Source: Candidatus Bathyarchaeota archaeon | Lineage (GTDB): Archaea; Thermoproteota; Bathyarchaeia; Bathyarchaeales; DTEX01 | DNA length: 64,000 nt | Assembly (NCBI GenBank): GCA_018396995.1 | Contig: JAGTQB010000001.1 | Location: 67,584 to 131,583 of the forward strand | Direction of reading: 5' to 3' | Shown: in pieces, positions 7,189 to 53,055 of the stretch | Numbering within the stretch: the stretch's first letter is position 1 | Layout: the number at the start of each line of letters is the position of its first letter | Made by a program: the position numbers and the translations under genes | The notes under the pieces: generated by a model | What the model saw: only the letters and a program-made list of their open reading frames with translations | What the model was told of the DNA's origin: nothing | Database searches by the model: none

Positions 7189-7322
7189 AATCGTTATTTC
7201 AAGAAATAATTATATTTTTCTTTCCGCTCCTCTAATATTTTATCTAAATTGTGGTGATGGAAAAGGCTGGGTGATGGTGGAGGGCGAGTTTTCTGGGAGG
7301 AGCCAATGCTGAGGGAGTTAGG

Positions 7323-9272
7323 ATAGGCGTATATGTATGCCACTGCGGTGTAAATATTGCTGGTGTAATTAATGTAAAGAAAGTTACTGAGTACGCACGT
7401 AATCTCCCAAACGTTATTATAGCCAAGGATCACCTATACCTCTGTTCAGATGCAGGTCAAGCGCTAATTAAGCAGGATATAAAAGAGTATGGGTTAAACC
7501 GCGTGGTTGTCGCCGCCTGCTCACCAAATCTTCACGAACAAACTTTTCGCAAGTGTATAGAAGATGCTGGGTTAAATAAATACCTGCTTGCCATGGCAAA
7601 CATTAGAGAACACTGCTCATGGGTGCATGAAAGCTGGCCTAAAGAGGCGACTGAGAAGGCTATTGATGCTGTTAGGATGGCTGTGGCCCGCGCCAACCTG
7701 CTTGAGCCCCTAGAAACAATTAAAGTCCCCGTTAAGAGAAGTTGCCTAGTGATTGGCGGGGGGATAGCTGGTATCCAAGCAGCTTTAGACCTCGCGAATG
7801 AAGGATTTGATGTTTACTTAGTTGAGAAGGAGCCAAGCATCGGGGGCCTCATGGCAAAATTTGATAAAACTTTCCCAACAATGGATTGCTCAATGTGCAT
7901 ATTATCCCCAAAGATGGCTGAGGTAATGCACCACCCAAAGATCCACCTCTTAACAAATGCTGAAGTCAAGACGGTTTCAGGCTTCATCGGTAATTTTAAA
8001 GTTGAGATCGAGATAAAACCACGGTATATTATAAGCGAAATCTGCAATGGTTGTGGGGAGTGCGTTAAAGTATGTCCTATTGAGGTTCCAAGCGAATTTG
8101 ATGAGAGACTTGGGCCTAGAAAAGCTATATTCGTCCCATTTCCCCAAGCCGTTCCCCTAATCTACATTATTGACATCGAAAATTGCATTAAATGTTACAA
8201 ATGTGTTGACGCTTGCGTGCAAGCGCGCGGGGCTAAAGCAATAGATTTTGCTCAGGAGCCAAAGAGGATGGAGATTGAAGTTGGGACAATAATTGTGGCA
8301 ACTGGATGCAGCACATTTGACCCATCGATTTTAGAGGAATATGGTTATGGCACCTATGAAAACGTGGTTACCGCGCTAGAGTTTGAGAGAATCCTAGCCC
8401 CAACTGGGCCGACCAGGGGCGTGATTTTAAGGCCCTCGGATGGAAGGATCCCGAAGCGTATCGCGTTCGTCCAATGTGTTGGATCTAGGGATAAGAGGAC
8501 GAATATTTACTGTTCAAGGGTCTGCTGTATGTATGCCACAAAGCAGGCTCTGTTAATCAAGGAGAGAATCCCAGACGCTAAGGTGACGATCTTTTACATT
8601 GATATGAGAGCCTTTGGGAAGGGGTTTGAAGAGTTTTATGCTAGGGCTCAGAGTGAAGGAGTATACTATATTAGAGGTAAGGTTGCAGAAATCATTGAAG
8701 ATCCAGGCACTAAAAATTTGAAGCTAGTTGCTGAGGACACCTTGTCCGGGGAGGTAATTGAGACTGAAGCAGACTTAGTGATTTTATCTATTGGGCTTAT
8801 TCCGTCAGCGTCGACGAAAGATTTGCGTGAAAGGATAGGTTTGTTGGTTGGACCTGACGGCTTCTTTAAGGAGGCGCATCCAAAACTAAGGCCTGTTGAC
8901 ACGATTGTCGATGGAATATTTATTGCGGGGGCTGCTCAGGGTCCAAAAGATATCTCGGACAGCGTCGCCCAAGCCAGTGCTGCAGCACAGAGAGCGAGCA
9001 TCCTCATGTCTACCGGAGAATTTGAGACGGAAGCAATAACCGCTAGAGTTAATGGCGATTTATGTAGTGGCTGCCTAATATGTGTTTCCATGTGCCCATT
9101 CAATGCGTTGGTTGTCGAGGGTAAGAACGTAAATGTTAACCAAATTCTTTGTAAGGGTTGTGGGGCCTGCGCTGCAGCATGCCCAGCTAAAGCCATAGAA
9201 ATAATGCATTTCAAAGATCAGCAAATCCTCGTTGAAATTAAGGCTCTTTTGGAAAATGTATCAAGGTTATAG
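7323..9272 (+). CDS. hdrA: Heterodisulfide reductase subunit A-like flavoprotein (HdrA, methanogen-type with N-terminal Cys domain); the start codon is unresolved
   Basis: The ORF track starts at GTG 7503, but the same frame is open from 7275. That upstream stretch encodes RIGVYVCHCGVNIAG...VVAACSPNLHE, the conserved HdrA N-terminal domain. It continues with the FAD fold VIGGGIAGIQAALDLA, an inserted ferredoxin domain (CNGCGECVKVCP, CIKCYKCVDAC) and a C-terminal 2x[4Fe-4S] (CSGCLICVSMCP, CKGCGACAAACP). The 5' end is placed at ATA 7323 only provisionally; the alternatives are CTG 7293 or a frameshift from ATG 7274. Confidence 0.85.
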   Translation: MGVYVCHCGVNIAGVINVKKVTEYARNLPNVIIAKDHLYLCSDAGQALIKQDIKEYGLNRVVVAACSPNLHEQTFRKCIEDAGLNKYLLAMANIREHCSWVHESWPKEATEKAIDAVRMAVARANLLEPLETIKVPVKRSCLVIGGGIAGIQAALDLANEGFDVYLVEKEPSIGGLMAKFDKTFPTMDCSMCILSPKMAEVMHHPKIHLLTNAEVKTVSGFIGNFKVEIEIKPRYIISEICNGCGECVKVCPIEVPSEFDERLGPRKAIFVPFPQAVPLIYIIDIENCIKCYKCVDACVQARGAKAIDFAQEPKRMEIEVGTIIVATGCSTFDPSILEEYGYGTYENVVTALEFERILAPTGPTRGVILRPSDGRIPKRIAFVQCVGSRDKRTNIYCSRVCCMYATKQALLIKERIPDAKVTIFYIDMRAFGKGFEEFYARAQSEGVYYIRGKVAEIIEDPGTKNLKLVAEDTLSGEVIETEADLVILSIGLIPSASTKDLRERIGLLVGPDGFFKEAHPKLRPVDTIVDGIFIAGAAQGPKDISDSVAQASAAAQRASILMSTGEFETEAITARVNGDLCSGCLICVSMCPFNALVVEGKNVNVNQILCKGCGACAAACPAKAIEIMHFKDQQILVEIKALLENVSRL

Positions 9273-9997: not shown

Positions 9998-10987
9998 TCA
10001 TTCCTTTCTAGCCCTTACCTCATCAATTTTCATTTTAAGCACTGGTATTATCTTGAATAAGTCTTCGACAACGCCATAATCTGAATAACCAAAGATGGGG
10101 GCTTTCGGATCCTTATTCACTGATATTACTAGCTCTGAGCCCCTCATCCCCAGAATATGTTGGAAAGAGCCGCTGATTCCAAGAGCAAGATATAGCTTTG
10201 GCTTAACAGTTTTCCCAGAGATCCCGACCTGTCGGTCACTTGGAAGCCAACCCTTATCCACAATTGGACGTGTGCAGGCTAGTACCCCACCCAACGATTT
10301 AGCCAGATCCTCGACTAACGGAATGTTACTTTTATCTTTTATTCCCCTTCCGATGGATACTATGATGTCAGCGGCAGTTATATCCACTCCCCCCGGCGGC
10401 GGTGGAACATACTTTATGAAGCGCTTCCTCAACACTACTCTTTCCATGGGAATTGATAACTCCTCTATTCTTCCACCCAATGGTGGAGAGGGCTTCTGGA
10501 CCATGAAGCTCCCCTGTCTCACAGTAACCATGTAGCTCTCGGACCTGCGGACCACAGCCCTAACATTAACCTTTCCACCATACATTTGCCGCGTAACTAT
10601 GAGTGAGTTGTTTTCAAAAGTTATGTCTATGCAGTCTGTGGCCAATGGAATATTTAGAGAAGCTGCTAGTCTAGGGGCGAGTTCAATGCCGTAAGATGTG
10701 TGCCCAATCAACGTTAATAATGGCTTTAGCTCCCTAATTACACGTGAAAGAACCTCCTGGTATAAGTCGGAATTAAAATGCTCAAATAATGGATTCTCAA
10801 CTAACAAAACTCTATTTGAATATTCTGCTAAAGTTGGTGCAAAACTTTTAACATCTTTACCCAGTACAATTGATATAACTTCGGCGCCAAGTTTACTGGA
10901 GAGATTAATGGCTTTAGTGAGCATCTCAAAGGTTATGTCTCTTAGCTGGCCCCCTCGATGCTCCGCCAAGACAAGTATTTCCACCAT
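9998..10987 (-). CDS. etfA: Electron transfer flavoprotein alpha subunit (EtfA/FixB)
   Basis: 329 aa. The C-terminal FAD-binding block is VSIGRG...RPIVD.GW....QVG.SGK.V.PKLYLALGISG..QH..G. It has a 1-nt TAATG overlap with etfB. Confidence 0.9.
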   Translation of the reverse strand: MVEILVLAEHRGGQLRDITFEMLTKAINLSSKLGAEVISIVLGKDVKSFAPTLAEYSNRVLLVENPLFEHFNSDLYQEVLSRVIRELKPLLTLIGHTSYGIELAPRLAASLNIPLATDCIDITFENNSLIVTRQMYGGKVNVRAVVRRSESYMVTVRQGSFMVQKPSPPLGGRIEELSIPMERVVLRKRFIKYVPPPPGGVDITAADIIVSIGRGIKDKSNIPLVEDLAKSLGGVLACTRPIVDKGWLPSDRQVGISGKTVKPKLYLALGISGSFQHILGMRGSELVISVNKDPKAPIFGYSDYGVVEDLFKIIPVLKMKIDEVRARKE

Positions 10988-11784
10988 TAAATTAATCCCC
11001 TCCTCCTTAAAATCTCAACTATCCTTGAGGCTACTTCATTCGGGCTCCCGCTAATAAACTCAACCTTCTTTTCAGCTGGCGGGGTAAACATTTCCTTAAC
11101 TCTTATCCATGAACCCGTCTCACTAACATCTTCTTCGCTTAGGCCTAAGTCCATAAGAGATAAAACCTTTATCTCCTTTTGCATAGCCCTTCGAATAGCC
11201 ATTATAGAGACATATCTCGGCTCATTTATCCCAGTTTGAATCGTGAATAACGCTGGCAGATCAACCTCAAGAACCTCCTCAAACCCTCCCTCAAGCTCGC
11301 GATTCACGATAGCTTTCCCATCCCTAAACTCTATCCTCTTAATCATTGTGGCGTGTGGGATTCCAAGCATCTCAGCGAGAACAGGCCCAACAAGAGCACT
11401 TTCATCATCACTAGCCTGCACCCCAGTTAATATTAGATCAAAGCGCATACCCTTAATAACATTATAGAGTATCTTAGCTATCGCGTAGGCATCCGAACCA
11501 GAAATTTTAGGGTCAGTCACACGGATCGCCCTATCTGCACCACGGGCCAGGCATTTGCGCAGTGTGCTATCAGCATCTTCGGGGCCAACGGTGATAACAG
11601 TAATAGTCCCGCCAAACTTCTCCTTGATACGCACAGCCTCTTCGATAGCATATTCATCCCACTCATTTATGTCGAAAACCAAGCCTTGCTTCTCTATATC
11701 CCTACCACTAGCATCTATTCTTATCTCGGCCTCCGCAGTCTCTGGAACATGCTTAACACAAACAATAATATCCAAGCAAACCAT
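10987..11784 (-). CDS. etfB: Electron transfer flavoprotein beta subunit (EtfB/FixA)
   Basis: 265 aa. It has IIVCVKHVPE at the N-terminus, the NEWDEYAIEEA block and LILTG.QASDD, typical of EtfB. Confidence 0.9.
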   Translation of the reverse strand: MVCLDIIVCVKHVPETAEAEIRIDASGRDIEKQGLVFDINEWDEYAIEEAVRIKEKFGGTITVITVGPEDADSTLRKCLARGADRAIRVTDPKISGSDAYAIAKILYNVIKGMRFDLILTGVQASDDESALVGPVLAEMLGIPHATMIKRIEFRDGKAIVNRELEGGFEEVLEVDLPALFTIQTGINEPRYVSIMAIRRAMQKEIKVLSLMDLGLSEEDVSETGSWIRVKEMFTPPAEKKVEFISGSPNEVASRIVEILRRRGLI

Positions 11785-41247: not shown

Positions 41248-41404
41248 TTCATCTCACCTTCAGCATGATTTAATATCGAGTATTATAGTTTATGGTTAAG
41301 AATATTAAAGTTACTTAAAGCTGACTGAAGGAAACTTTATTTAAGTTTCCTAACACTATTTATCTAAAAAACATATGTTAAGGGTGATTTAAACGAGGAC
41401 TGGT

Positions 41405-42220
41405 ATTGGACTAGTTGGTTGCGGCACAATAGGTAGCGTTGTTGCTGAGGCTATAGACGACGGGAAGATTGAGAACGCAAGTCTAATAATTATTTATGAT
41501 ATTGTTCCAGAGCATGCTGAAAAACTCGCCTCTAAATTGAAACGTAGACCCCTTATAGCAAGATCTTTAAGCGAGATTTTAGAGAGAAGTGATGTCCACA
41601 TCGTTGTTGAAGCAGCATCACAGGAATTTGTCAAAGAACATGCTGTCGAGATATTAAGCGGCAACAAAGACTTACTAATTATGAGCGTGGGCGCCCTACT
41701 AGATGAATCACTACTCTCCGAGATAATTGACGTCACCAGAAGAACTGGTAGGAAAGTTTATGTTCCATCCGGGGCCATCGTTGGCATAGATAATATTAAG
41801 TCCGCGGCACTAGGAAAGGTTGAGGAGGTAATTCTTGTAACTAGAAAACCTCCGGAAAGCTTTAGGGGAACTGATTTAATCGAGAAGAGTGGAATCGATA
41901 TTTCCTCAATAAAGGAGCCACTCCTTCTCTATGAGGGGCCAGCTCGTAAGGCTGTCGAAATACTCCCACAGAACATTAATGTTGCGGCCACTCTAAGCTT
42001 GGCTGGTATAGGGCCTGATAAAACAAAGGTTAGAGTTATAGCTGATCCGAAAATAAAGGATATAATCCATGAGGTCTATGTTAGGGGTGAGTTCGGAGAA
42101 ATGTATACTAGAACCGTAAATAAGCCCTTCCCAAGCAATCCTAGAACAAGCTATATTGCAGCCCTTTCTGCCATAGCAACCCTAAAAAGAATAACTAGTA
42201 ATATGCTCATCGGTACATAG
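41405..42220 (+). CDS. nadX: L-aspartate dehydrogenase (NadX); the start codon is unresolved
   Basis: The track ORF starts at TTG 41537. The same frame is open from 41393 and encodes TGIGLVGCGTIGSVVAEAI..., the Rossmann GxGxxG of NadX. Later blocks are VVEAASQEFVKEH, VPSGAI.G.D, NVAATL and HEV.VRGEFGEM....N.P...NP.TS. The 5' end is placed at ATT 41405 provisionally. Confidence 0.8.
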   Translation: MGLVGCGTIGSVVAEAIDDGKIENASLIIIYDIVPEHAEKLASKLKRRPLIARSLSEILERSDVHIVVEAASQEFVKEHAVEILSGNKDLLIMSVGALLDESLLSEIIDVTRRTGRKVYVPSGAIVGIDNIKSAALGKVEEVILVTRKPPESFRGTDLIEKSGIDISSIKEPLLLYEGPARKAVEILPQNINVAATLSLAGIGPDKTKVRVIADPKIKDIIHEVYVRGEFGEMYTRTVNKPFPSNPRTSYIAALSAIATLKRITSNMLIGT

Positions 42221-45371: not shown

Positions 45372-45570
45372 TGGTGGGGCTGGCCGGACTTGAACCGGCG
45401 ACCTACGGGTTTCTCCAAGCTCCAGACGATCTTCATCCCCAAGGGGTCAGTAAACCCGTTTCCTGGCATCTGGAGCCCTTAACGGCCTAAGCGGCTAAGC
45501 CGCATTAAGCAGTCGTCATACCTTTCTAGCAGTCACACATGAAGTGTGGCTGCTGCTAGACCACAGCCCC
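45372..45570 (-). tRNA. tRNA-Val(UAC) gene with about 122 nt of intervening sequence in three blocks; the 3' CCA is encoded
   Basis: The reverse strand has acceptor GGGGCTG/CAGCCCC, discriminator A, CCA and the T-arm GCCGG-TTCAAGT-CCGGC. Joining 45570-45556, 45525-45514, 45459-45450 and 45411-45372 gives a 77-nt cloverleaf: GGGGCTGTGGTCTAGAAAGGTATGACGACGGGTTTACAACCCGTAGGTCGCCGGTTCAAGTCCGGCCAGCCCCACCA. This closely resembles archaeal tRNA-Val. Intron borders are ambiguous by a few nt. Confidence 0.8.
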
Positions 45571-45664
45571 ACCATCAAAAATTATGAGAAATCATCCAAA
45601 TTTATATACATTATGCACCCATCTAAACGAAAAAGTTAAGAATATGAGTTTTAATTGAAGTAAA

Positions 45665-45796
45665 TGGTGGATTGCCGGCCAAAGGGCGCGGGAACCACCC
45701 AAACCCATTCCGAACTTGGAAGTTAAACCGCGCTCCGTCCCCGGTTTTAGTGGGGTCTTCGGCCCCGCGAAGCTGGGGAAGCTGGCAATCCACCAT
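45665..45796 (+). rRNA. rrf: 5S ribosomal RNA (not linked to 16S/23S)
   Basis: The terminal helix pairs TGGTGGATTGCC with GGCAATCCACCA. Internal conserved blocks are CCCATTCCGAACTTGGAAGTTAAAC and GTGGGG...CCCC...AAGCTGGG. Confidence 0.9.
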
Positions 45797-45800
45797 TTAT

Positions 45801-46112
45801 CTATTCTTTCTCTCCCTCAAGAAGCCATTTTAGAGGTATATCTTGGTAAGTTCCATCCGGGAGAGTTCTACGGATTGTTATTGGAAGGACACCCCGTTTT
45901 AGCTCTTCAAGAGCAATATCTACTGGACTCTTCATATTCTCTTTAACTTCTACCAGAATGGGAGCGCCCATAGCTATCTGTAGCGCCCTTGCACCAACAA
46001 TCCTAGCTTTTTCAAAGCGAGTGAGCTTTGGTGGACCAATTAAAACTCTCCTTTTACTTTCAGCGTATAAGTTCTTGATCTCCTGAGATTCTTGGAATGA
46101 AGAGCTAATAAT
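45801..46112 (-). CDS. rpoK: DNA-directed RNA polymerase subunit Rpo6 (RpoK); the start codon is unresolved
   Basis: It is not in the ORF track. Reverse translation gives [54 protein letters not shown]...[25 protein letters not shown]..., the Rpo6/omega-like core. The frame is open only from 46121 and has no ATG/GTG/TTG before the conserved LTRFEKAR block. ATT ATT (46112-46107) follows TAAGGAGGAGGG. Confidence 0.8.
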
Positions 46113-46278
46113 CCCTCCTCCTTATTAAGATCTCACCTTAGGAATTAAGTTTTTTAAGCGACTTAATATATTTGATGCACACTAAAACATTTAAAGTAAA
46201 TATAAATTTTACGATGTTTACTAGCTTACTTAGGCATGATAAAGGTTTAAATGTCACGGCTATTATCGCTATTAAGGG

Positions 46279-46986
46279 TTGAAGATGTTTCAGGAGAAAT
46301 CAAAGGGCATAAGGTTTAGTGACGTTGTACTTATCTTTGATAGAGATTTAGGTAAACTTGTGTTTCGAGATTTTAAAGGGTATGGAAGTTTATTGGATGA
46401 TGCAGAGTGGTTGCTTGAGAGAACCCCGCAGAGATCGTGGGGCTTCATGATGCGGCCAATTATAAAAGAGGGAAGTTATGGTCTCTGGATAGGAGAATAT
46501 GAACCAGAAAATAATAGGGTGGTCCGAGAGGAAGTGCATTTTAGTAGGGGTGCCTCAACTATAAGTAAACTTCTCCTAAGGTATGCTGAGAATAAAATTA
46601 GTGAAAGAGTCATTAATAAGATGTTGAACGTGGATACGCTCAGAAATAAACTGCCTGAAAGCAATATAATTCAAGATTTCAAATACTTTATTTGCCCAGA
46701 GGAGCGACTCTATAGTAAGTGTCCACGCATAGAGGAGATATACAGAGCTATTTTAAAGAGATCTAATTCAGTCTCAAGACTCCATTACTCCCAGGTGGCG
46801 GAGATTATCTCGAGAATCAATAAATGTAATGATGTAATAATTTGTCCATTAACAGCGCCGCCAAACGCTTTTGAAAGACTTTTTACCCTCAATAAGGTTT
46901 TAAGGAGTAGAAGGATGGGAGAGATAAACATTTATGAGAATGTAATTAAGGTGTTTCAGCATTGCCCCCAAGGAGAATCTTTTTAG
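46279..46986 (+). CDS. Hypothetical protein (no recognisable domain)
   Basis: A 235-aa ORF with TTG 46279 or ATG 46285 as start. Composition is coding-like and I recognise no motif. Its 3' end overlaps the convergent Mut7-C gene by 41 nt. Confidence 0.4.
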   Translation: MKMFQEKSKGIRFSDVVLIFDRDLGKLVFRDFKGYGSLLDDAEWLLERTPQRSWGFMMRPIIKEGSYGLWIGEYEPENNRVVREEVHFSRGASTISKLLLRYAENKISERVINKMLNVDTLRNKLPESNIIQDFKYFICPEERLYSKCPRIEEIYRAILKRSNSVSRLHYSQVAEIISRINKCNDVIICPLTAPPNAFERLFTLNKVLRSRRMGEINIYENVIKVFQHCPQGESF

Positions 46987-47446
46987 CCTGATCTAGAGAA
47001 CTATTTATTTTCTTCCAGTGGCTACCCTTCCAATATACTTGCCCACATCCAGTACACATCCAAAATTCATCATGCATCTTATATGTTGAAGGAGGCACTC
47101 TATCCTTAACACTCTCCTTACTGACAGATTTAATTGCAGAATTACATTTAGGGCACCGTGACCGCTCAATATCTATTTCTAGCCTAATGTTGAGTTGTCT
47201 TGATAAATCCGCCAGCTTCTCAGTGTGGGTCCTCCCATTCACAAAGACCGCTCTAACTCCGCTGGCATTAGCCTTTCTAAAAAGCTGATAATCCCTAGTT
47301 AATATGATTCGCTTCTCCTCAGCGGCGATTCTAAGTATCTCCTTATCATCTAGATCATCGGCATATTTTATATCGTAGCCGAGCATTCTCAACCACCTAG
47401 CAACTTTGCCAAGCATTCCATCAGCGATGAGCTTCATATCACTCAT
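46946..47446 (-). CDS. Mut7-C/DUF82 PIN-like RNase domain protein with C-terminal zinc ribbon
   Basis: 166 aa with the MKLIADGMLGKVARWLRMLGYD signature, then CPKCN...CTGCGQVYW. Confidence 0.75.
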   Translation of the reverse strand: MSDMKLIADGMLGKVARWLRMLGYDIKYADDLDDKEILRIAAEEKRIILTRDYQLFRKANASGVRAVFVNGRTHTEKLADLSRQLNIRLEIDIERSRCPKCNSAIKSVSKESVKDRVPPSTYKMHDEFWMCTGCGQVYWKGSHWKKINSSLDQAKKILLGGNAETP

Positions 47447-47453
47447 AAATCCT

Positions 47454-48782
47454 TCACCTAATTATTTTTCCACATCCAGGCTTAGCAACTATTTCTCCTT
47501 CATCCATCACTAATACACCATTTACAAATGTTTTTAGGGGCTTTCCTTTTACGCGCCATCCATCAAATGGTGAAAACTTTGCCTTAGAATAAAATTCTGT
47601 CGGATCTATAGTCCACTCCCTTTTTAGATCTACGACAACTAGATCCGCATAAAATCCCTCAGCTATTTGACCTCTACCCTTGAGCCCAAATATCCTTGAG
47701 GGGTTCTCTGAGAGAACCTTGACCAAAGTTGACAGCGATATTTGCCCTTTATTAACCATCGTAAGCATTAAGGGAAGCATGGTTTCAATCCCCGAGATTC
47801 CAGCTGAGACATCCCATACTGAAGAAGCATCCTTCTCCTTAAATGCGTGGGGAGCATGGTCGGATGCAACAATATCAATTAGACCATTCTCTAATGCCCA
47901 CTGCAAGTATAGAACTTCAGATAATGGTCTGAGCGGCGGGTTCACGAGCGCAATATTGCCAATCCTCTTTAAATTTTTCTCCGAAAGGAGTAGATGGTGT
48001 GGTGTGACCTCGCATGAAACTGAGATACCGCGAGACTTCTCACGCAGTATGGTTCTTAACCCCTCAGATGTGCTGACATGGCATACGTGTACATGGGTGC
48101 CGGATCTTTCAGCGATCCTCATTGTGCGCCTAATCCCTTTAACCTCAGCCTCAACAGAGTGGACCTCAAGGTAAGCCTCAATGTCGCTCCGACCCGCTAC
48201 CTCCTTAAATTTTCTTAGGAGGAGAGAACCATCCTCAGCATGTACAGCAACTGGGAGATTAACCTTTGCAGCTTCTTTAAAAGCGTTTATCATCTTATCT
48301 TCATCATTAGGATCTATGCCACCAACCTTATGGGAGAGAAAAGTCTTGAAAGCTTTTGCTCCTGCATGAGCTATTTGCCCTATCTCATTAATGTCTTCGG
48401 GGAAAGCGGAGTAAAAGGCCACATTGACAACTGTCTTTCTGGATGCTATCCTCATCCTCTCCTTAAGGGCTTCTAGGCTCATCGTTACAGGCTTATTATT
48501 GGGCATATCAATGACTAAAGTTACACCTCCATTAGCGGCGGCACATGTTCCAGTATAAAAGTCTTCCTTATATGATAGATCTTGATCTCTTAAGTGGGCA
48601 TGAACATCTATAACTCCTGGAAGAATAAACGTTCTATTTAAGTTGATTTTTTCCGAGGCGCTTGGGAGGTTTACTTCCTTAGCAATCCTAACTATTTTCT
48701 CTCCATCAATAGCTATCCCGGCATCAATAACCCTGCCGCCAATATATACTTTTGCCTCTTTCAGAACAAGGTCTACACTCAA
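47454..48782 (-). CDS. pyrC: Dihydroorotase-type cyclic amidohydrolase
   Basis: 442 aa with GVIDVHAHLRD (HxH), AFK.F, VHAED, H.CH.S and SDHAPH blocks. Confidence 0.8.
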   Translation of the reverse strand: MSVDLVLKEAKVYIGGRVIDAGIAIDGEKIVRIAKEVNLPSASEKINLNRTFILPGVIDVHAHLRDQDLSYKEDFYTGTCAAANGGVTLVIDMPNNKPVTMSLEALKERMRIASRKTVVNVAFYSAFPEDINEIGQIAHAGAKAFKTFLSHKVGGIDPNDEDKMINAFKEAAKVNLPVAVHAEDGSLLLRKFKEVAGRSDIEAYLEVHSVEAEVKGIRRTMRIAERSGTHVHVCHVSTSEGLRTILREKSRGISVSCEVTPHHLLLSEKNLKRIGNIALVNPPLRPLSEVLYLQWALENGLIDIVASDHAPHAFKEKDASSVWDVSAGISGIETMLPLMLTMVNKGQISLSTLVKVLSENPSRIFGLKGRGQIAEGFYADLVVVDLKREWTIDPTEFYSKAKFSPFDGWRVKGKPLKTFVNGVLVMDEGEIVAKPGCGKIIR

Positions 48783-48845
48783 CTTTTATCGCCCAAAAAT
48801 CGGGATCCATAACCAATGAAATTATATTTAGATGATATCTAAAAA

Positions 48846-51293: not shown

Positions 51294-52512
51294 GCGCCAT
51301 AATCTTCTCTATAAGATTCTGCGGCACACCAATGTATACTTTTAGAGAATCATTATCGTATCCTATTCTATGCACCTTCGTATTCTCATATATCCAAGAG
51401 AGGAGAGAAAATGATTCCTGTTGCAGGGGCATTGTTATAGTTAAATCCTCATACCTTTTAAGGGTCTTAGACATCTCCATTTTGAGTAAATCAAGGTTAA
51501 CCCCATATAAGGCTGATATTGGAACGAATTTTAAGTTCTTATAGGCTTCACTTAAATATGCGACCTTATGATACAATTCATCCTTCGATAATAAGTCGAT
51601 CTTATTTAATGCAACTATCATCGGTATCCCCATTGCATCTATCTTTCTCAACGCATCAAGAGAAGATGCAATTTTTCTCATAACCTCATCAATTGTCTCA
51701 CTTATATCGACTACTAATAAAATTAGATCAGAGCAAGTGATCTCTTCCAATGTTGAGTAAAAGGCTTCGATTAAGGTTATGGGCAAACGTTCTATGAAGC
51801 CTACAGTATCCGTAATGAAAGCCTTCTCACCAAAAATATCCATAACTCTTGTCGTTGTAGACAACGTTGTGAAGACCTCTGGTCCAGTTAGAACCTCCTC
51901 TCTTGTGAGGGCGTTAAAAAGCGTGCTCTTGCCAGAGTTAGTGTATCCTGCGAGTGATATGAGGGAAAGACCAAGCTCAGCCCTCCGCGCCCTATGAACC
52001 TGCCTTAACCTTCTAATCTCCTTAAGCTTCTCCTGTATTTTATGAATCCTCCTTTTAATCTCATTATAGTAGACATCTGCCTCATATTTGCCCAATCCAT
52101 GGAAGCCTGGTTGCTCGCCCATCTTAGCAAGCCTAACCTTCTCCCTGGCATGGGCTAGCTCATACTGCAGCCGTGCCAATTCAATTTGGAGTTTAGCCTC
52201 TTTAGTCGAAGCCCTCTTAACAAATATTTCAAGAATTAGCTGGAAGCGATCAATAACTTCTACATTAGTTGCTTTAGCAAGATTATATATTTGAATGACT
52301 TTAAGGTCATTACCAAAAATTATTTTCTCCGCCCCGAGATTCTTAACCATCTGGGTGAGCTCTTTAACCTTTCCCGGACCAATATTATAGCGTGGATGGG
52401 GGAACCTTGTCTGTTCAATAACTCCAACAACTTCGTAGCCAGCTGCCTCGGCTAAACTCTTAAGCTCCTCTATGCATGATTTCTCAAAGGGCCCTCTGCG
52501 ATAAACTAGAAT
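51253..52512 (-). CDS. hflX: GTPase HflX; the start codon is unresolved
   Basis: The track ORF begins at ATG 52350, but the frame is open up to 52527. That stretch encodes ARTRAILVYRRGPFEKSCIEELKSLAEAAGYEVVGVIEQTR...GPGKVKEL, the HflX N-terminal domain. The G domain follows: GYTNSGKSTLFN, DTVGF, NKID. The 5' end is set at ATT 52512 provisionally. Confidence 0.85.
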   Translation of the reverse strand: MLVYRRGPFEKSCIEELKSLAEAAGYEVVGVIEQTRFPHPRYNIGPGKVKELTQMVKNLGAEKIIFGNDLKVIQIYNLAKATNVEVIDRFQLILEIFVKRASTKEAKLQIELARLQYELAHAREKVRLAKMGEQPGFHGLGKYEADVYYNEIKRRIHKIQEKLKEIRRLRQVHRARRAELGLSLISLAGYTNSGKSTLFNALTREEVLTGPEVFTTLSTTTRVMDIFGEKAFITDTVGFIERLPITLIEAFYSTLEEITCSDLILLVVDISETIDEVMRKIASSLDALRKIDAMGIPMIVALNKIDLLSKDELYHKVAYLSEAYKNLKFVPISALYGVNLDLLKMEMSKTLKRYEDLTITMPLQQESFSLLSWIYENTKVHRIGYDNDSLKVYIGVPQNLIEKIMALVERVGGKIVSST

Positions 52513-52527
52513 CGCCCTAGTCCTAGC

Positions 52528-53055
52528 CTACCCCTCCTCATCCCCCTTTATGTGGACAACTTCGCCAAACGTAACTCCTCTTTTACTTCTCATAGCCATG
52601 TTAGTCGACTTGTCTAGATCAATCTCAGGCTGCTTAACCAACAATTTTATCTTCAATGCACGTTCAAGCTTAGTCGCTAGCCTAATGTCAGGTACGATTC
52701 TTTCACCTTCAATCTTCTTAATCACGGACTCCTTCTCTCCAATAATTTTGCCAAGATCCTCTGGCGTTAAGCCCAATTTCTCACGTGCTCTTTTAATTAC
52801 TGAGCCAAAGCCCTCAACTATCTCATAATCATCTTGTATTTGCGTCTGCGTTTGGGAGTATTTACCGCTGACAACTGATTTTATGCTTCTTGATAATTTT
52901 GGGGCAGCCTTTTTTGCAAGGTTCTCTTCTTTTCTAGGGGACCAGTAACCTGACCCAAGCTTAGCACACTCAGCACATGTAATAACATTAGCTCCCTCAA
53001 TGATCACTCTATGCGGCTTCCCTATAATTTTTCGGCCACAGACATCGCACTGCAA
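52528..53055 (-). CDS. Multiprotein bridging factor 1 (aMBF1): zinc ribbon plus cro/C1-type HTH
   Basis: 175 aa with the N-terminal CDVCGR...CAEC and a C-terminal HTH (LGLTPEDLGKIIGEKESVIKKIEGERIVP). Confidence 0.85.
   Translation of the reverse strand: MQCDVCGRKIIGKPHRVIIEGANVITCAECAKLGSGYWSPRKEENLAKKAAPKLSRSIKSVVSGKYSQTQTQIQDDYEIVEGFGSVIKRAREKLGLTPEDLGKIIGEKESVIKKIEGERIVPDIRLATKLERALKIKLLVKQPEIDLDKSTNMAMRSKRGVTFGEVVHIKGDEEG

Follow-up and report, generated by a model that had tools for sequence, protein, structure and literature searches.

Initiation of translation at AUU is established in bacteria, as in infC, and initiation at ACG and CUG is established in eukaryotes. Archaeal start choice is taken as AUG, GUG or UUG, and gene finders such as Prodigal enforce this rule. 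We describe here the gene rpo6 (rpoK), encoding an RNA polymerase subunit, in a stretch of 64,000 nucleotides (nt) from a Candidatus Bathyarchaeota archaeon (GenBank assembly GCA_018396995.1, contig JAGTQB010000001.1, positions 67,584 to 131,583; hereafter the window), in which translation probably starts at one of two adjacent AUU codons behind a Shine-Dalgarno (SD) element. In the published model of SD-led archaeal initiation the initiator tRNA samples triplets locally, and aIF1, the homologue of eIF1, also enforces fidelity (PMC6237735). A 2021 review found non-canonical events in archaea to have been demonstrated only for elongation and termination (PMC8211752), while coupling by reinitiation has been described for overlapping or closely spaced archaeal gene pairs, with a range of working distances that includes 3-4 nt (PMC10666635). 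Literature searches on archaeal AUU or ACG starts, rpoK start codons and Bathyarchaeota start codons returned nothing relevant. The class of mechanism is already known. What appears not to have been described is a conserved case from an archaeal class, on rpo6 and with ACG.

The rpo6 gene lies on the minus strand and was read directly from position 46139, where a single frame runs AAG GTG AGA TCT TAA TAA GGA GGA GGG ATT ATT AGC TCT TCA TTC CAA and continues past the two ATT codons to a stop at 45803-45801. This reading confirmed the arrangement given in a preliminary description of the locus, in which two TAA stops, an SD and ATT ATT stand in one frame with Rpo6 (46127-46107). The frame is closed by TAA TAA three codons upstream of ATT ATT, and no AUG, GUG or UUG occurs before the conserved protein. 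As had been claimed, the earliest in-frame ATG, GTG or TTG is the Met of AMGAP (ATG at 45971-45969), which lies within the conserved core and is codon 50 after the stop when the open reading frame (ORF) is counted from stop to stop.

The product of this frame is Rpo6/RpoK. It scored 47.2 bits against Pfam PF01192 RNA_pol_Rpb6 (cut-off 26; E=2.3e-12) over residues 28-78, and residues 26-93 aligned with solved Rpo6/Rpb6 chains with E values down to 3e-17. Sulfolobus RpoK (2y0s_I) aligned over residues 26-88 (E=3.3e-17), Rpb6 and Thermococcus Rpo6 also matched, and the best database match, at 99% identity, was a 'DNA-directed RNA polymerase subunit K' from a metagenome-assembled genome of Bathyarchaeia. 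Since the structure alignment spans residues 26-93, a start at Met-48 (ATG 45971) would delete core residues 26-47, in agreement with the earlier statement that such a start cuts into the conserved core. The window protein thus shares its core with the Rpo6/RpoK/Rpb6/omega family, and differs in an N-terminal tail of about 25 residues which is lineage-specific and variable in length; the tail before the core is 22 residues long in Sulfolobus versus 3 residues in Thermococcus. Two circumstances which the preliminary description had named as capable of overturning its reading were not observed. No second copy of rpo6 was found within the window, where the gene is intact and single-copy, and a read error in the TAATAA region was excluded, since an independent NCBI assembly carries the identical DNA and the arrangement is conserved in relatives.

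With respect to the SD element, AGGAGGAGGG, spacing was compared with that of window ORFs carrying an SD-like motif before a canonical start, with the distance measured from the first G of GGAGG(TGA). The commonest distance to the start codon in these ORFs is 12-14 nt. For rpo6 the first GGAGG gives a distance of 12 nt to the second ATT, within the usual range, and of 9 nt to the first, which is shorter than usual. Both ATT codons are within reach of the SD, with the second at the optimum, and the second AUU is the more likely of the two to be used because it stands at the usual spacing. The preliminary description had singled out this SD as the best match in the window, which proved too strong, as the 9-mer AGGAGGAGG occurs eight times on the two strands and also precedes a gene with a canonical ATG at 11007 on the minus strand.

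A conserved TATA-like block stands approximately 90 nt upstream of ATT ATT, and from its position a leader of approximately 60-65 nt is predicted. From these elements a probable promoter of its own can be assigned to rpo6, with transcription predicted to start near GTGCATCAAA because this lies at the usual archaeal distance from a TATA box. A regulatory RNA structure in the leader was considered and dropped, as no unusual secondary structure was predicted there (z=0.23) and Rfam reported nothing near rpo6 except the neighbouring 5S rRNA.

To place the start region in the window's clade, the rpo6 5' regions of five distinct species were aligned (alignments A1 and A2), the species being represented by the window, which is identical to L002, by L001 (= L003 = L166), by L004 (= L086 = L167), by L169 (= L170) and by L171. 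An alignment of this kind had been proposed in the preliminary description, and the succession of stop, SD and ATT ATT was found to be invariant: all five species keep an in-frame stop (TAA or TGA), GG(A/G)GGAG(A/G)G and ATT ATT A. In four of the five there is no ATG, GTG or TTG between the stop and the LTRFE motif of the core. The promoter-like region is likewise preserved. Its core AAATTTATATTTA is invariant in all five species and continues as (C/G)TTTA(A/G), the full block of 20 nt is identical in four species and differs at two positions in L171, and GTGCATCAA, approximately 25 nt beyond the block, is again invariant in all five. The stretch of leader from the promoter-like block to the SD is free to diverge, with insertions and deletions (indels) of 1-6 nt which are not multiples of three, and the SD is kept. 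The candidate start codons and the SD are conserved at the nucleotide level while their flanks diverge.

Downstream of ATT ATT the pattern is a different one. The tail is variable in sequence and keeps its frame, with sole indels of 9 nt and 3 nt among the five species, and the codons next to ATT ATT vary (AGC/AAA, TCT/CCT, TCA/ATG/GTA/ACA). A comparison of the window with L001 over codons 3-11 gave five nucleotide changes, four of them at third positions, with eight of nine residues unchanged; this small sample was counted by hand from alignment A2 (binomial p ~0.045). Judged by indels in threes and third-position changes, the sequence directly after ATT ATT evolves as coding sequence.

The case for an AUU start is made by four features in combination: the frame is closed, no canonical codon is available, the conserved SD stands at the right distance, and a coding signature begins immediately downstream. 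From these sequence features we put the probability that rpo6 translation starts at one of the two AUU codons behind the SD at roughly 70%. Several points weigh against this reading. The invariance of the two ATT codons is by itself not significant against the background of identical codons, as 16 of 60 conserved-residue codons and five of eight Ile codons of the core are also identical in all five species. One species (L004/L167) carries an ATG at codon 5, three codons past ATT ATT, which is possibly the start there. A shorter isoform from the ATT at codon 25 is possible, given the SD-like AAGGAGAG before it, and in this regard Thermococcus Rpo6 is only 57 amino acids (aa) in length. Finally, archaeal initiation has been reviewed with AUG, GUG and UUG as the only start codons (PMC7531240), and work cited in PMC6237735 indicates that aIF1 discriminates in vitro against non-canonical codons. 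The features of the locus are collected in Table 1.

Table 1. Features of the rpo6 locus, in window positions.
Feature	Coordinates	Strand	Basis or remark
rpo6 (rpoK) coding sequence counted from first ATT	45801..46112	-	103 codons + TAG stop; translation, Pfam, structure alignment, 99% match
First ATT, candidate AUU start	46110..46112	-	Invariant in five clade species; NCBI start in GCA_038841375.1 (P0002)
Second ATT, candidate AUU start	46107..46109	-	Invariant in five species; usual SD spacing; homologous ATT is NCBI start in L169 (P0007)
SD element AGGAGGAGGG	46113..46122	-	Direct reading; GG(A/G)GGAG(A/G)G in five species
In-frame stops TAA TAA just upstream of SD	46122..46127	-	Relatives have TAA or TGA at same in-frame position
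Mini-ORF GTG AGA TCT TAA	46125..46136	-	GGTGA motif 46137-46133 overlaps its 5' end; not conserved
Promoter-like block AAAATTTATATTTACTTTAA, BRE/TATA type	46191..46210	-	Putative promoter, from sequence
Conserved block GTGCATCAAA, ~25 nt downstream of TATA-like box	46171..46180	-	Probable transcription start region
ATC at codon 12	46077..46079	-	NCBI start for identical sequence (P0001, MKNLY...)
ATT at codon 25 (I of LIGPPK)	46038..46040	-	Possible minor internal start
First canonical in-frame ATG (Met of AMGAP)	45969..45971	-	Start here would remove residues 26-47 of core
5S rRNA gene	45671-45790	convergent to rpo6	Rfam

The preliminary description had called the gene invisible to ORF callers based on ATG, GTG and TTG. 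A finder restricted to these codons yields only a fragment of 56 aa, but the gene is not invisible to every pipeline, as the NCBI annotation called it from ATC at codon 12 in the assembly with DNA identical to the window (GCA_038823455.1) and from ATT codons in relatives. A relative with 85% protein identity reads TGA GGA GGA GAG ATT ATT AAA TCT; one assembly of it was called from the first ATT (P0002) and a second, with the same DNA, from a downstream ATT (P0004). In two further relatives the NCBI start is the second ATT (P0007) and yet another ATT (P0006), and L001 and L003 were given differing starts on identical rpo6 5' DNA. In L166, two of the 18 called genes start at ATA or ATT. The NCBI pipeline takes ATT and ATC starts without a consistent basis for choosing among them.

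These annotations bear on the possibility that the SD and ATT ATT are not the start at all and that translation begins at a downstream Ile codon, either the ATC at codon 12 or the ATT at codon 25, just before GPPK. The NCBI calls of P0001 at the ATC and of P0004 and P0006 at downstream ATT codons agree with such a start, a short protein would be functional given that Thermococcus Rpo6 has three residues before the core, and AAGGAGAG begins 11 nt before the codon-25 ATT in the window. The calls disagree for identical DNA, however (L001 versus L003), and each codon meets difficulties of its own. The ATC at codon 12 is unlikely as the main start because the five species have ATC/ATT/ATA/CTT/CTT there, so that a possible start is not conserved (CTT cannot initiate), and because GGAG abuts the codon without spacing, outside the range of spacings in the window. 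At codon 25 the SD-like element is present in the window only among the five species, and the position reads ATA, ATT, ATC, GTT, GTA or GTG across Bathyarchaeia, a variation which indicates conservation at the amino-acid level. A downstream start would also leave unexplained the invariant stop, SD and ATT ATT, the tail indels in threes and the third-position bias. It is the chief rival to the AUU reading, and we regard it as unlikely.

To examine the start region beyond the window's clade, we sampled 80 loci from species-representative genomes and 80 metagenome loci encoding close Rpo6 relatives, approximately 150 of them distinct; by record title all are Bathyarchaeia except two (Nitrososphaeria and Limnocylindrales). 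The rpo6 match lies near position 1501 or 1201 of each locus (L005-L165), with the start region of L017, for example, at approximately 1460-1530. In most loci rpo6 follows a chaperonin (thermosome) gene; the chaperonin tail ...IDDIIAAGK...GAGEY* was found upstream of rpo6 in 112 of 144 loci, and Cpn60_TCP1 was called in L084 and L085. A typical junction reads GGC GCT GGG GAG TAT TAG AAT ACG TCT AAA AAA GAG AAG AAA ATT TTG ATA GGT CCT CCG AAG CTT ACT. An in-frame ACG was observed 11-16 codons before the L of LTRFE in 111 of the approximately 150 distinct loci, as compared with 7 and 0 in the other two frames, and loci of this type occur in 25 of 32 clusters formed at 85% core identity. In a set of 147 distinct loci, 86 of the 111 with ACG had no canonical start at least nine codons upstream of LTRFE, and hence none that would include the conserved N-terminal residues. 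Altogether a canonical start is absent, as it is in the window, from about 96 of the approximately 150 distinct loci.

The surroundings of this ACG change while the codon itself stays. The codon before it takes 26 different values (AAC, AAT, GAA, AAA, AAG, GAT, CAA and others, even TAA), the codon after it encodes Ser with synonymous variation (TCT 42, TCC 13, AGC 11, TCA 9, TCG 7), and the distance from ACG to the core changes by whole codons only. Elsewhere in the sampled rpo6 genes ACG makes up 15% of Thr codons (95/648). An in-frame stop lies 0-2 codons before ACG in 74 of the 111 loci, and GGAG stands 9-12 nt upstream in 88, the GGAG or GGGGAG being kept both where it is part of the chaperonin coding sequence and where it is intergenic. 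ACG follows the chaperonin stop by 3 nt in 61 loci, by 4 nt in 18 and by 13-22 nt in 15. The same position is occupied by ATA in L102, L112, L114, L151, L153, L162, L120, L061 and L160, by ATC in L028 and L071, and by ATG in L164. The occurrence of ATA, ATC, ATG and ACG at one position is as would be expected of a start rather than a threonine position, since all are one-base neighbours of ATG. Where the N-terminal tail is longer, the start is TTG or ATG (L006, L011, L023, L087, L089, L094, L099), and in the window's subclade ATT ATT appears to be used and the ancestral ACG has become AGT or ACT.

Two other accounts of the relatives were rejected. Fusion with, or readthrough from, the thermosome gene was excluded by the frame of ACG relative to the chaperonin gene, which is 0, +1 and +2 in 68, 22 and 7 loci. 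A TTG six codons before LTRFE was ruled out as a general start, as many species have TTA, CTA or CTC there and as the sequence upstream of it shows synonymous Ser and Lys codons and indels in threes. Two side observations were made in the same sample. The locus with ATG, L164, has a degraded SD, GTCGGGCCG, as compared with GCTGGAGCG in its ACG-bearing relative L060, and this single pair of loci hints that SD strength may compensate for codon strength. Genes for Mut7-C and dihydroorotase flank rpo6 both in the thermosome-linked L084 and L085 and in the window's clade (window 46100-48800), with the orientation inverted, and a local inversion is the probable cause of the loss of linkage between rpo6 and the thermosome gene in that clade.

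The class-wide pattern also bears on the idea that decoding itself is unusual: for instance, the start might be edited from ACG to AUG in the ACG clades, a special initiator tRNA might exist, or Ile or Thr might be the initiating residue. Plant organelles edit ACG to AUG, and the invariant ACG is exactly the codon edited there. C-to-U editing cannot, however, make AUG from the ATT, ATA or ATC found at the same site in other clades, mRNA editing is not known in archaea, and the window yielded no tRNA evidence for such decoding. Explanations of this kind seem to us very improbable.

The preliminary description had offered, next to AUU initiation, termination and reinitiation after a mini-ORF, in which GTG AGA TCT would be translated up to the TAA (TAA) and ribosomes would restart 9-12 nt downstream at AUU. 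Of these two proposals, AUU behind the SD is the better supported by sequence, and the mini-ORF did not hold. The mini-ORF does exist, and the GGTGA motif overlaps its GTG; archaeal gene pairs which overlap or lie close together are known to be coupled by reinitiation (PMC10666635), and ACG-type relatives start 3-4 nt after the thermosome stop. The mini-ORF was found only in the window and the identical L002, however, and is absent from all four related species (L001, L167, L169 and L171), which keep the SD and ATT ATT. Its GTG lies inside its own SD, so that no SD stands at a working distance, and ACG-type loci without an upstream thermosome gene (e.g. L080, L082, L083 and L068) keep GGAG and ACG. 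Reinitiation at the window's rpo6 is thus a highly improbable explanation. Least probable of all is that the locus is a pseudogene, an assembly error or the source of only the 56-aa C-terminal fragment from ATG 45971, which is all that canonical ORF finding returns, since an independent assembly has the same DNA, relatives share 85-99% of the core protein sequence and differ by many synonymous changes (of 60 conserved-residue codons, no more than 16 are the same in all five), a 56-aa product would be without residues 26-47 of the structural core, and a canonical start is equally lacking in most of the sampled loci.

Besides rpo6, three long ORFs without a usable canonical start were found in the window, at 7275 (HdrA-like), 41393 (aspartate dehydrogenase) and 52527 (HflX-like), which reproduced the four cases of the preliminary description. 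The aspartate dehydrogenase gene (plus strand; 41380-41420) reads GGTGAtttaa ACG AGG ACT GGT ATT GGA, with a stop immediately before ACG; its NAD-binding domain begins at residue 9 and its first canonical codon is a TTG at codon 48. In its relatives (L166 at ~13449 and L167 at ~13246, both minus strand), one keeps GGTGATTTTA ACG, for which the NCBI start is a GTG inside the SD, and the other has GGTGA-N8-ATG one codon later. This gene probably gives the genome a second ACG start. The gene for the HflX-like GTPase (minus strand; 52470-52560) encodes an N-terminal domain from residue 18 and has no canonical start ahead of the ATG at codon 59. In three species GCT, ACT or ACG comes after a stretch rich in SD motifs and a TAG in frame, with ATT or ATA a few codons later; among the relatives (L166 3650-3720, L167 3640-3800) NCBI chose ATA in one, and short in-frame upstream ORFs end at the TAG in two. 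The HdrA-like gene (7275-7520, plus strand; RIGVYVCHCGVNIAG) has no ATG, GTG or TTG for 76 codons after the stop, and its candidate starts are a CTG at codon 7, with GGAGG beginning 14 nt upstream, and an ATA at codon 17, with GGAG beginning 11 nt upstream. Taken together, these genes suggest that start-codon use is relaxed beyond rpo6 in this lineage.

Two further observations were made in the window. The gene at 9998-11014 (minus strand) reads AAGGAGGAGGGG ATT AAT TTA ATG at 10985-11010. Here the same SD is followed by an ATT which is in frame with the ATG and three codons ahead of it, much as in rpo6 of L004 (ATT ATT AAA TCT ATG), and two starts may be in use. A tRNA-like gene lies at 45372-45571 (minus strand). 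Its 5' end, GGGGCTGTGGTCTAGC, and its 3' end, GTAGGTCGCCGGTTCAAGTCCGGCCAGCCCCACCA, make up an acceptor stem and T arm, and since approximately 200 nt separate them, one or more long introns are implied. This gene was missed by ARAGORN and by Rfam at the gathering threshold, with only a weak tmRNA-clan hit over its 3' half.

Should rpo6 start at AUU, AGGAGGAGGG would pair with the 3' end of 16S rRNA and position the small ribosomal subunit, and the initiator Met-tRNA would start at one of the two AUU codons, presumably with Met as the first residue. Between AUU and the initiator anticodon the third position is mismatched, and initiation should hence be inefficient, with the long SD partly compensating. 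Among Bathyarchaeia a weak start appears to be an ancestral trait of rpo6, kept by selection. Most of the class has rpo6 3-4 nt behind the highly expressed chaperonin gene, where it would start at ACG, or at ATA or ATC in some clades, with GGAG 9-12 nt ahead of the start. The ancestors of the window's clade would have had rpo6 separated from the thermosome gene, and there it would have gained a promoter and a longer N-terminal tail and come to start at AUU. The weak codon may hold down Rpo6 synthesis behind an abundant chaperonin message and may have been retained afterwards together with the long SD; this suggests a simple means of making little Rpo6 from a site directly after a chaperonin gene of very high expression.

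For the class as a whole we lean, at slightly better than even odds and from sequence comparison, towards near-cognate starts on rpo6 across Bathyarchaeia, with ACG in about three quarters of the sampled loci and AUA, AUC or AUU elsewhere, and on approximately 5% of the genes of this genome, as the first clear selected case in Archaea of a start other than AUG, GUG or UUG. The approximately 5% would comprise rpo6, aspartate dehydrogenase (ACG), HflX and probably HdrA. If this is true, the archaeal initiation machinery of Bathyarchaeia accepts even a second-position mismatch, as eukaryotes do, and archaeal ribosomes with eukaryote-like factors use ACG and AUU in vivo, which would make rpo6 a natural substrate for testing the aIF1-dependent stringency of start-codon choice. 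These data also flag a systematic annotation error in Bathyarchaeia genomes: because gene finders enforce AUG, GUG and UUG, rpo6 genes have been truncated, extended into the chaperonin gene or given arbitrary starts.

Among known systems, coupling by termination and reinitiation in archaea resembles the arrangement in most Bathyarchaeia, where rpo6 starts 3-4 nt after the thermosome stop. In contrast, the window's rpo6 has no upstream gene and only a non-conserved ORF of three codons; the thermosome and Rpo6 are not subunits of one complex, and the restart codon would be non-canonical. The aEF1A mRNA of Pyrococcus abyssi (GGAGGUGAU, then AUG) is alike in an SD complementary to the 3' end of 16S rRNA, in a motif which begins approximately 12 nt before the start and probably in being leadered, while the triplet in rpo6 would be AUU, or ACG, AUA or AUC in relatives, rather than AUG, GUG or UUG. 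The AUU starts of infC (IF3) and pcnB in E. coli share with rpo6 a conserved AUU behind an SD, and there a weak codon selected in an essential housekeeping gene lowers or regulates output. The product of infC itself discriminates against AUU, which results in autoregulation, whereas Rpo6 is an RNA polymerase subunit, not an initiation factor, with no known role in start-codon selection, and the machinery of the window's organism is archaeal (aIF1/aIF1A/aIF2). In eukaryotic near-cognate initiation at ACG, CUG or AUU, with stringency set by eIF1 and eIF5, one-base mismatches are decoded by the initiator tRNA as proposed here, and the codon which most rpo6 genes of Bathyarchaeia conserve, ACG, has its mismatch at the second position; the difference is that rpo6 would be placed on the ribosome by SD pairing and not by scanning and Kozak context.

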